Of a stretch of DNA of 58,387 bases, positions 50,054 through 51,600 are shown piece by piece; the first letter of the stretch is position 1; every line of letters starts with the position of its first letter. The DNA lies in IMG/VR virus record IMGVR_UViG_3300008122_000003, positions 1 to 58,387 of that record; one strand, given 5' to 3'. Position numbers and translations under genes: made by a program. This DNA is from a virus. Lineage: Duplodnaviria; Caudoviricetes. The notes beneath the pieces were generated by a model, which saw only the letters and a list, made by a program, of their open reading frames with translations, did not search any database and was not told the origin of the DNA.

Positions 50054-50424
50054 TTTTCGAACCTCATTATTGCGTGGCCCACCAGTTGGCTGTCGGGCAT
50101 GACAGATACCAAGCGGCCTGATATTTTACGCTGGCCGTTTTTACGGCGATGGTTATCTAGCACTTCGTTTTTCAAGCGGAGTCTCATGTCCAGGTCTGTT
50201 CGGTATTGATATTCTGGGATGCCGCGTTCGCATCGCAAAACATAACACTCTCGGTTAAAGGCCTTGAACTCATCCGGGCTTAGTTTTAGCTCTGGGATGA
50301 AAAACGGCTTGTGGGTATCCTCCAGGGTAGCCAGCTCTTCCTTGAGACCGTCCAGCTCGCCTTGGGTCTTGCGGATGGCGTCGCGCAGCATGTCACGGCG
50401 CATGGTGTACTCTTGATCAGTCAT
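50050..50424 (-). CDS. Hypothetical protein
   Basis: RBS GGAG; ATG 50424 overlaps upstream stop. Confidence 0.6.
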   Translation of the reverse strand: MTDQEYTMRRDMLRDAIRKTQGELDGLKEELATLEDTHKPFFIPELKLSPDEFKAFNRECYVLRCERGIPEYQYRTDLDMRLRLKNEVLDNHRRKNGQRKISGRLVSVMPDSQLVGHAIMRFEK

Positions 50425-50768
50425 TGCTCGCTCCGGTTGCAGGTGATCAGGGAGTAGACCACCACGCGGCCGTCGCCGGTGATCATCTCGCCTGTGGATT
50501 GGTTGTAGCGCAGGCCTGTCTTCTCGGCCGCACGCTTGATGGCGCCGCCCGCTGTGCATTTGAGGTTGTAGCGCACTTTGGACAGCTCGTCCTTCAGGTC
50601 GCACAGGCGGACGGTGCCTTCCAGTTGGCGGGTAATGTAGTGCAGCTCGCCGGGGCTAAGGCCCAGGATGGCCGTCATGTGCTTGCCCGGGCGTCCGCCC
50701 ATCGACGGGGTGACATCCACGTCACTCTCGATGGGGGCCGTCAGGTCATGCAGGTCTTGGTTGGGCAT
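50421..50768 (-). CDS. Hypothetical protein (first gene of leftward early operon)
   Basis: RBS AGGAG downstream of promoter. Confidence 0.7.
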   Translation of the reverse strand: MPNQDLHDLTAPIESDVDVTPSMGGRPGKHMTAILGLSPGELHYITRQLEGTVRLCDLKDELSKVRYNLKCTAGGAIKRAAEKTGLRYNQSTGEMITGDGRVVVYSLITCNRSEQ

Positions 50769-50795
50769 ATTCGTTCTCCTGTTTCGTTGGGAGTA

Positions 50796-50826
50796 AAGGT
50801 ATTGCTTTCCGAACTGTTAGTCAAAC
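50796..50826 (-). promoter_or_regulatory. Early promoter TTGACT-N17-TACCTT with shared core
   Basis: GTTTGACTAACAGTTC on the minus strand. Confidence 0.75.
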
Positions 50827-50850
50827 TGTTTTATTTATTTATTTGAGGGG

Positions 50851-50880
50851 TTGACACGACGGCGGCATGGCGGCAATACT
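50851..50880 (+). promoter_or_regulatory. Rightward promoter TTGACA-N18-AATACT with AT-rich UP-like element
   Basis: Perfect -35; back-to-back with leftward promoter; no RBS-led ORF follows. Confidence 0.6.
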
Positions 50881-50886
50881 TGCCTC

Positions 50887-51280
50887 ATCCAAACAGGATA
50901 TCCCCGACAAGGATAGAAAGGAGAGTGATCCTATCTCAAGCTGGTGGCATTCCAGTAAGCTCGAAGCCATGTCGAACGACAGCGCGACGAGCACACAACT
51001 GAGGTTGCATTGGGCGTGGTGGCGTTACCACTCTAAACAACGCGGCTTTCAAGGCTTCCATGAAGTTGGAGTCCTCGGGCCACTCCGGTGCAACCTCAGT
51101 TGTGGTGAAAGAGCTTTACCGACAGACCCTGTCAGCGGGATGACACAGGGCGCTTGCATCAAGGTGAAAAGGGTAGACGTGGACGTGCCGTGATCCGCAA
51201 CGGTTGGAAACCACGCACAAGGGCCGCCAAACGGCAGAAGATGCCATCGCAACAAGAAAGCCCTCTTACGAGGGCTTTTT
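50887..51280 (+). ncRNA. Putative ~390-nt structured non-coding RNA of unknown family
   Basis: Own promoter and terminator; perfect 16-bp long-range helix 50994-51009/51089-51104; many nested hairpins. Confidence 0.7.
51257..51280. terminator. Bidirectional terminator
   Basis: AAAGCCCTC-TTAC-GAGGGCTTT-TT. Confidence 0.85.
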
Positions 51281-51294
51281 CCTATCCGCAGTTC

Positions 51295-51600
51295 TCACTT
51301 CTTACTCAACGCGCAGTAGGCGATGATCTTCACCGCCAGGCGCTCGGCCAATACCATCTGCTGGGGGTTGAACTGCCCCGACTGCATGATCCCGACCAGG
51401 CCCATCAAGTTGCCCATGGCCTTCAGGTCGGCCATGGCGGACTGCATGATCTGCTGGGGGTTATGCCCTTCCTTGATGATGGACACCGCCCTGTCTCGCA
51501 AACCATCCGCCACGTCGATCGCCGGTCCGTACTGGGTATCAGTCGGCAGGGCTTGCGGCGGCTGCAGGTCGCTTGCTTGCAACTGCATGCTCTGCTCCAT
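51295..51600 (-). CDS. Hypothetical Gln/Met-rich helical protein
   Basis: RBS GAGG; two NPQQ repeats. Confidence 0.65.
   Translation of the reverse strand: MEQSMQLQASDLQPPQALPTDTQYGPAIDVADGLRDRAVSIIKEGHNPQQIMQSAMADLKAMGNLMGLVGIMQSGQFNPQQMVLAERLAVKIIAYCALSKK

Follow-up and report, generated by a model that had tools for sequence, protein, structure and literature searches.

A predicted phage non-coding RNA family with a conserved Shine-Dalgarno-like motif that is not followed by a usable start codon

The stretch of DNA analysed here, referred to as the window, is IMG/VR virus record IMGVR_UViG_3300008122_000003, a phage genome record that is 58,387 bp long, complete and bounded by direct terminal repeats. 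Large genes occupy its plus strand from 1.4 to 37 kb and small genes its minus strand from about 38.5 to 57 kb. Two minus-strand open reading frames (ORFs), 50421-50768 and 51295-51600, which match PHROGs 6647 and 7239 (both labelled 'unknown function'), flank a 526-bp gap (50769-51294). Within this gap we predict a plus-strand non-coding RNA (ncRNA), which carries close to its 5' end a motif complementary to the 3' tail of 16S ribosomal RNA (rRNA). The motif is conserved in relatives and lacks a suitably spaced start codon, and the most fitting description of the ncRNA is that of a new phage RNA family with a conserved, non-initiating mimic of a Shine-Dalgarno (SD) sequence. Among phage records compared by BLAST, Aeromonas phage phiWae15 comes closest to the window at this locus. 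The features of the locus, all on the plus strand, are as follows.

50851-50880, plus strand: sigma-70-like promoter TTGACA-18-AATACT, ten of 12 consensus matches, predicted start near A50887.
About 50887-51281, plus strand: predicted ncRNA of ~395 nt, from its fold, the promoter-like site and the terminator hairpin.
50899-50915, plus strand: 5' hairpin, TATCC (50899-50903), loop CCGACAA, GGATA (50911-50915), with a covarying stem.
50918-50931, plus strand: motif complementary to the 16S 3' tail, AAGGAGAGTGATCC; the family consensus, AGGAGGTGATCC, lacks A50924.
50940-50956, plus strand: P1 hairpin, GCTGG, 7-nt loop TGGCATT, CCAGT; 94.3% of cells paired, three of five pairs double-changed.
50959-50992, plus strand: P2, GCTC (50959-62) with GAGC (50989-92); 100% paired, one A-U for G-C swap, in Avpx2.
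50966-67 with 50984-85, plus strand: P2b, GC with GC, enclosed by P2; P2b and P3 together 95.1% paired, four of six pairs double-changed.
50970-50981, plus strand: P3, TGTC, loop GAAC, GACA, enclosed by P2 and scored together with P2b.
50993-50999, plus strand: single-stranded ACACAAC, the end of a near-invariant CGACGAGCACACA block, invariant in nine of nine sequences.
50997-51101, plus strand: module B, a predicted long helix of AACTGAGGTTGCA (50997-51009) with TGCAACCTCAGTT (51089-51101) and a variable insert between them.
51102-51256, plus strand: module C, further structured RNA (predicted fold).
51257-51280, plus strand: G+C-rich terminator hairpin AAAGCCCTC-TTAC-GAGGGCTTT, then a T-run; present in the minimum free energy and centroid folds.

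The letters at 50911-50936 read GGATAG AAAGGAGAGTGATC CTATCT. A sequence-only reading of this DNA had claimed that 50918-50931 could form 13 pairs with the 16S tail around one bulged A, that this is far longer than a normal SD and that no suitably spaced start codon follows. All three points were borne out. In RNAduplex, AAGGAG-A-GUGAUCC and GGAUCACCUCCUU form 6+7 = 13 pairs with A50924 bulged, at -21.4 kcal/mol; the tail used was the one stated in that reading, which we found in a Mixta genome. Scored in the same way, the motif ranks first among 116,738 18-nt segments of both strands, a scan that takes in every true ribosome-binding site (RBS) of the phage; the next-best site reaches -19.3 kcal/mol and the mean is -5.3 (standard deviation 2.7). 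The phage's own genes carry ordinary SDs, for instance AGGAGA ahead of ATG 50768. The only ATG, GTG or TTG codons within 42 nt of the motif are GTG 50925, which lies inside it, and GTG 50944, which lies 20 nt past GGAG and is followed by a stop after four codons. A true RBS has a start codon 5-9, at most ~13, nt past the SD, and this codon opens a conserved ORF; nothing of the kind follows the motif. No reading frame is kept across homologues, which are put out of frame with one another by an indel at CC(N1-3)TCTC, and the non-coding nature of the RNA is thus upheld as far as sequence can tell. Both the complementarity and the missing start codon are real features of the window.

Allowing up to two mismatches, AGGAGGTGATCC has 16 copies in the window, against 4.7 +/- 2.2 in shuffled sequences, in a scan that covered copies of the motif on both strands rather than sequences able to pair with it. 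Fourteen lie on the plus strand, chiefly within large genes; the site in the ncRNA itself has an insertion and so is not one of the 16. The excess likely reflects codon or peptide bias (GGTGATCC) rather than signals.

BLAST against phage records showed that the 5' part of the ncRNA (window ~50902-51012) recurs at 80-94% identity in unannotated gaps of otherwise different Aeromonas phages, namely phiWae15, ST4 (90 kb), 2_D05, 4_D05 and 4_4512. Further loci were collected from IMG/VR and metagenome contigs by pattern scans and a covariance model (R1). Sixteen loci score 78-106 bits with R1 and Aeromonas phage Avpx2 scores 39.7 bits, which brings the distinct phage or metagenome loci with the 83-nt 5' core to 17. 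Rfam 15 gave no match in the window at the gathering threshold, and on 21 related loci it found only transfer RNAs (tRNAs) and one int-alpA match; the ncRNA is, judged from these comparisons, a new structured RNA family absent from Rfam. The int-alpA RNA (RF02996) lies at L027 8827-8893 on the minus strand, with 36.5 bits versus a threshold of 35.8, about 4.5 kb from a copy of the core in the same viral contig. None of the bacterial genomes searched yielded the family, a result that does not extend to Aeromonas prophages, because Aeromonas genomes were not singled out: the pattern GAACNNNAGNNCGACGAGCACACA had no match in bacterial genome contigs, a shortened form of it none in 401 genomes of the order of genome G001, and R1 none in the 18 best of 22 prophage loci found via the ORF L009:5055-6341. 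Loci L011-L013, L016, L018 and L019, together with 21 of 25 new loci of one later pattern search, were judged chance matches by eye, without an R1 run.

There are also possible mini-versions, which have the look of small RNAs standing on their own, at L025 2435-2560 (minus strand; the same as L033 1440-1560) and at L079 6540-6730. Of the conserved letters they hold the motif and TCTCAAGC only, arranged between a promoter-like site and a terminator in the order promoter-like site, short hairpin, AGGAGGTGATCC(N)TCTCAAGC, terminator. Their kinship to the family consists of 22-25 shared letters and weak R1 scores of ~20 bits. The stem of the short hairpin in L025 contains CCGACAAG; in L079, the motif might be masked by a CACCUC that precedes it, and beyond the terminator lies a membrane-like ORF of 40 codons.

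Conservation in homologues, on which the idea of ribosome binding leaned, is found. The perfect 12-nt complement AGGAGGTGATCC occurs in ten of the 16 loci in which the region is present, and in five of the 11 loci that were found without the motif in the query. The remaining forms are AGGGGGTGATCC in 2_D05, where an A-to-G change keeps a G-U pair, AGGGGGCGATCC in 4_D05, GGAGAGTGATCC in the window and ST4, GGGGGTGATTCC in 4_4512 and GGGGGTGATACC in Avpx2. In contigs from phages closely related to that of the window, A50924 is missing and position 50918 is C, which is the perfect form, and the bulged A of the window is therefore derived. The commonest substitution is A to G in AGGRGG, which keeps G-U pairing and loses the GGA of a CsrA-type site. 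In phiWae15 (AGGAGGTGATCC) and Avpx2 (GGGGGTGATACC), P1 differs with compensation, as does P3 in phiWae15, and the motif is kept; retention of the motif where P1 and P3 have been rewritten argues for selection on the motif letters themselves. The adjacent TCTCAAG is conserved as strongly as the motif and is not complementary to the 16S tail.

Across the 16 loci, the predicted duplex of the motif with the 16S tail ranges from -19.1 to -24.4 kcal/mol (-23.9 to -24.4 for perfect motifs) and the cost of opening the motif from 5.0 to 15.0 kcal/mol, so that net pairing is favourable in all 16 by predicted energies. The mean unpaired probability of the motif is 0.18-0.56, versus 0.33-0.44 for the whole RNA. 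With opening costs of 5-15 against a duplex gain of 19-24 kcal/mol, the motif is not consistently buried in an alternative fold.

Helices P1, P2 and P3 are supported by compensatory changes. In a nine-sequence MAFFT alignment, with an overall core identity of 88%, the three helices are 96% paired, versus 47% or less when partner columns are slid, and six pairs are changed on both sides, which none of 500 shuffles reached. A 19-row alignment, fitted to the model and hence leaning toward it, gives the pairing percentages listed above for P1 to P3 and has eight pairs with double changes. The G-U pairs of P1 and P3 mark the plus strand as the RNA, for on the minus strand they would read as A-C mismatches. 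The loop CCGACA of the 5' hairpin is invariant in 11 of 11 aligned loci and its stem compensates (TATCC/GGATA, (G)TTTCC/GGAAA(C), CTTCC/GGAAG); the ACACAAC tract has variants in two of the 17 loci. This fold changes the picture of how the motif is presented. According to the sequence-only reading, the motif is displayed in the loop of a GGATAG/CTATCT stem. Such a stem is present in the window, but it is not conserved, phiWae15 having CAGTCT for CTATCT and ST4 GGAAAC for GGATAG, and GGATA is instead the 3' arm of the covarying CCGACAA hairpin upstream. A weak alternative stem that would enclose the motif, AGAC...GUCU, has only 73.6% of its cells paired. The motif is probably exposed or weakly closed, and not by the GGATAG/CTATCT stem.

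Three further candidates were dropped. A pseudoknot noticed by eye between UGGC in the P1 loop and GCCA before P3 fails in 4_4512 and phiWae15, which change one side without compensation. A hammerhead-like 'CTAGATGAG...GAATAG' module in relatives, likewise seen by eye, differs at core positions and has no Rfam match. A minus-strand promoter-like TTGAGA-18-TATCCT (50939-50910) was considered as the cause of the conservation; in other phages the neighbouring genes are on the plus strand and the -10 element varies (GTTTCC).

For the transcript as a whole, we infer a start near A50887. A promoter scan of 2 kb returned four sites versus 0.6 expected, and the promoter region of phiWae15 has the same letters as the TTGACA-18-AATACT site of the window. 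A 401-nt stretch folds at -160.8 kcal/mol versus -127.3 +/- 5.4 for shuffles (z = -6.16), and none of 100 shuffles was as stable. Sub-threshold Rfam matches to the terminator ends of several small RNA (sRNA) models fall on the hairpin at 51257-51280, which a simple terminator scan did not list; the best of them is a minus-strand reading (STnc350, E = 0.0014). Because the minus-strand ORF 51295-51600 ends just beside the hairpin, the terminator is probably bidirectional. The same hairpin directly follows the core in phiWae15, which keeps core and terminator only (~150 nt, -44.3 kcal/mol, z = -3.3). At E<=10, Rfam gave only sub-threshold terminator-like matches in 50700-51400 and no tRNA, and ARAGORN listed no tRNA or transfer-messenger RNA gene in the window. 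Parts of 50800-51281 are matched at 85-99% identity by contigs from three RNA libraries (X15, X16, X17) and from X7, probably a DNA run; the contigs derive from relatives, and relatives at 85-99% identity to 51088-51281 are present in contigs of four runs; these contigs give no starts, ends, strand or expression, and the uncovered stretch 51016-51087 carries no meaning.

Some side observations concern the ends and the interior of the transcript. The letters before the RNA start, 50865-50880 (GCATGGCGGCAATACT), resemble GCATGGGGATACT, GCATGGGCCTACT and GCATGGGGGATCT, which precede the non-coding tracts of 2_D05, 4_D05, 4_4512, Avpx2 and 4_L372X (L003, L004, L005, L020, L021), and in 4_L372X the same promoter-proximal hairpin runs straight into tRNA-Ser genes, without the core. 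These letters are possibly a shared late-promoter or leader element. Module C contains a second GTGATCC (51190-51196), in the hairpin loop of CCGT (51188-51191) with ACGG (51200-51203).

Relatives carry the core as a module within longer non-coding tracts. It shares its tract with tRNA genes in six of the 17 loci (ST4, L014, L015, Avpx2, L029, L078). The core match of L029 and L078 starts no more than ~20 nt from the 3' end of a tRNA-Pro, which is directly followed by the 5' hairpin and the motif; in the window, the motif lies ~33 nt from the predicted 5' end. Longer RNA modules stand upstream of the core in ST4, L009, L010 and L014. The module B helix (AACTGAGGTTGCA...TGCAACCYCAGTT) is also found in ST4, 2_D05, L009, L010, L014 and L015. 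Its equivalent in L028 (656-778, minus strand) matches the Rfam tRNA model with 36 bits versus a threshold of 29 and has a long insert, TTGCATTG/CAGTGCAA forming an extended acceptor stem. The window copy of module B gives no tRNA match at E<=10 and may be at most a decayed tRNA-like element. Pieces of module B also occur in Cronobacter phage ES2, flanked by an antitermination gene and lysis genes, and in Klebsiella phages, flanked by a DUF1133 gene and lysis gene S. In 2_D05, the order is NinG, small ORFs, ncRNA, terminator and terminase small subunit, and 4_4512 is annotated likewise, which places the ncRNA of these temperate relatives at the boundary of early and late genes, the place of a late leader; PHROGs found no Q-like protein among six scanned 2_D05 ORFs upstream of the ncRNA. 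In the window and phiWae15, the unit stands alone, convergent with both neighbours. The downstream tracts of L002, L005, L014 and L015 hold further recurring non-coding modules (...GGTCTAGATGAGTGGGCCGATGCCGAATAGATTCATCC..., TCAGCTCCACGAAACGGAGC hairpins), which have no Rfam match.

How might such a motif be used? The 16S 3' tail on 30S subunits is free to pair with SD-like sequences. The explanation that we favour, and in which our confidence is evenly balanced, is that the motif is a non-translated docking site for the 30S subunit, an SD mimic that shields the 5' end of the RNA. The consensus stretch AGGAGGUGAUCC (in the window GGAGAGUGAUCC), with about half of its bases unpaired by prediction, sits between the 5' hairpin and P1-P3. 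This stretch would pair with the free 16S 3' tail, leading to the docking of a 30S subunit on the RNA. The docked subunit could not initiate and would stay parked, because no start codon follows and P1 begins ~15 nt after GGAGG. Together with the 5' hairpin, the parked subunit would shield the untranslated RNA, or a tRNA precursor, from decay that depends on the 5' end. Such protection would need one 30S subunit per RNA, and it would fit the locus because the motif adjoins predicted 5' ends and tRNA 3' ends; in L029 and L078, processing after the 3' end of tRNA-Pro would create a new 5' end at the hairpin and motif. Titration of free 30S subunits might be a second effect. We infer both the binding of 30S and its consequence from sequence comparisons and predicted pairing energies, and the ribosome-binding interpretation of the sequence-only reading is plausible, having survived the checks for motif conservation and for burial in another fold.

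Docking of 30S as a shield has a described parallel. According to excerpts of the work on STAB-SD in cry3A of Bacillus thuringiensis, a non-initiating SD-like leader binds the 16S 3' end and the bound 30S subunit stabilises the RNA (PMC4113751). The predicted ncRNA would share with that system, as far as those excerpts describe it, an SD-like sequence complementary to the 16S 3' end, the lack of initiation and the proposed 30S block to decay from the 5' side (PMC4113751). The two also differ, since the ncRNA has 12-13 nt of complementarity, belongs to a Gram-negative host group, is non-coding and carries its motif within a larger covarying fold. A polypurine 5' stabiliser is reportedly also present in Bacillus subtilis phage SP82. 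The STAB-SD and SP82 elements are short polypurine tracts in Gram-positive messenger RNA (mRNA) leaders and act against RNase J1.

Several points weigh against 30S docking as we propose it. An equivalent effect against RNase E would have to be assumed by analogy with the Gram-positive stabilisers acting against RNase J1. The 16S tail of the host itself is taken to have the letters given in the sequence-only reading and seen in the Mixta genome. The queries that brought up six core members and both short versions contained the motif, which inflates the count of ten in 16, and part of the conservation reflects recent common descent, as the core identity is high. Among the 11 members free of this bias, four have a 1-nt insertion in the motif and one a U-to-C mismatch, and a perfect duplex is therefore not required. 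Accessibility is uneven: in 2_D05 and 4_D05, the motif is predicted to pair with CCCUG/GUCAC upstream of it, so that opening costs 14-15 kcal/mol and the unpaired probability is ~0.2, a value also seen in phiWae15 and 4_4512. Finally, the contigs from RNA libraries are no sign of transcription, as such libraries can contain DNA.

The same complementarity and its conservation would also suit a trap, in line with the idea of the sequence-only reading that the RNA may sequester 30S subunits: reaching a high copy number in infected cells, it would occupy the anti-SD of free 30S subunits and lower SD-dependent initiation, binding itself being the purpose. We regard such a ribosome trap as rather unlikely, although it is somewhat favoured by the minimal versions: the mini-versions, with little besides the motif, have nothing else to stabilise, phiWae15 has been reduced to core and terminator, and the promoter is strong-looking with its ten of 12 consensus matches. 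Set against this, a trap requires a copy number comparable with that of free 30S subunits, phage genes with ordinary SDs such as the one before ATG 50768 would suffer too, the conserved P1-P3 core and ACACA are left unexplained, and the mini-versions are tied to the family by their 22-25 shared letters only. In its strictest form, a dedicated sponge would hold host 30S subunits in a non-initiating state by the 12-13 nt of anti-SD pairing, with P1 barred from the mRNA channel, a scheme that we likewise consider rather unlikely; if true, it would reshape the choice of messages translated during infection. A related idea, a sponge for CsrA/RsmA, was rejected: there is a single motif, GGA gives way to GGG in four of 16 loci (2_D05, 4_D05, 4_4512 and Avpx2, with GGGGG in the motif), and GGA is not enriched in the RNA (seven observed versus 8.6 +/- 2.4 expected). 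CsrB/RsmZ-type sponges are thus similar in being non-coding RNAs with SD-like purine motifs, but differ in that GGA is neither conserved nor enriched in the ncRNA and the motif is single.

The motif could also be a seed or binding site for a partner other than 16S rRNA, either a host or phage RNA with a CCUCC-type stretch of anti-SD kind or an RNA-binding protein, in which case its SD likeness would have nothing to do with ribosomes. The build of the RNA matches that of a trans-acting sRNA, with a 5' hairpin, ~20 conserved nt without a supported helix (the motif and TCTCAAG) and a terminator; the equal conservation of TCTCAAG, which the 16S tail does not match, points the same way, and late-promoter leaders of lambdoid phages can be regulatory sRNAs, as excerpts of PMC7547250 describe for StxS. 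As the complementarity is 12 nt long, far more than a CCUCC core, and is an exact match to the 16S tail in most members, we think another partner clearly unlikely. Less probable still is a purely internal role, in which the motif would pair within the transcript or act co-transcriptionally in the processing or antitermination of a late or tRNA operon. Upstream anti-SD-like stretches in 2_D05, 4_D05 (CCCUG...GUCAC) and L079 (CACCUC) can pair with the motif, and the element of 2_D05 and 4_4512, between the nin region and terminase with a terminator before the late genes, lies in a place for antitermination. No partner segment exists family-wide, however, as the upstream parts of the window/ST4 type and the 2_D05 type differ completely, and the convergent, terminator-ended unit of the window and phiWae15 has nothing downstream to antiterminate. 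The motif is, in our view, very improbable as the real RBS of a tiny or unconventional ORF. In eight core sequences translated by eye, a GTG lies 17-18 nt past GGAGG and opens a 4-codon frame in seven and a longer frame in 4_4512, and the window has an AUC 7 nt past the motif core. But the spacing of the GTG is outside the working range and the codon falls within the P1 stem and loop, phiWae15 and Avpx2 have no GTG, the AUC is missing from most members (GUC, AGU, UUC) and the frame is not kept. As neither a suitably spaced start codon nor a conserved frame is present, a tiny ORF was rejected.

Other known RNAs share single traits with this family. Ordinary and extended SDs have the same pairing partner and letters, whereas the motif lacks a start codon and a conserved ORF and pairs more strongly than any other site of the phage. 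The late-promoter (PR'-tR') leaders of lambdoid phages, such as StxS and lambda 6S RNA, are likewise short RNAs with a constitutive-looking promoter and a terminator, and in several relatives the ncRNA also sits at the early/late boundary (NinG, RNA, terminase); the differences are that no sequence or Rfam relation was found and that the window unit is convergent rather than operon-leading. In the excerpts of PMC7547250, the StxS late leader is a functional sRNA, and no action through the anti-SD is reported there. The tRNA cluster of phage T4 contains stable non-tRNA RNAs that are co-transcribed with the phage tRNAs. Their likeness to the ncRNA is one of tRNA co-transcription, by description only, and we know of no anti-SD complementarity in them. 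In full-text literature searches, which did not extend to subscription journals, we found no phage sRNA or RNA regulator whose direct target is the 16S 3' tail, the anti-SD or the 30S subunit, and no mention of phiWae15. A term search of the accessible text of a 2025 review of phage-derived sRNAs gave no occurrence of '16S', '30S', 'Aeromonas' or 'tRNA'.

Whatever its function, the ncRNA defines a structured RNA family outside Rfam, with a covariance model and 17 loci, that links phage tRNA and pseudo-tRNA operons at the boundary of early and late genes. Compact objects for tests are at hand in the phiWae15 version of ~150 nt and possibly in sRNAs of ~80-100 nt. If the motif docks 30S subunits, the family would be a natural, conserved ncRNA that uses the SD interaction for something other than the start of translation. 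It would then be either a stabiliser in a Gram-negative system that employs the ribosome as a shield or a phage-made trap for host ribosomes, and either outcome would bear on how untranslated bacterial RNAs survive and on how phages handle host translation.

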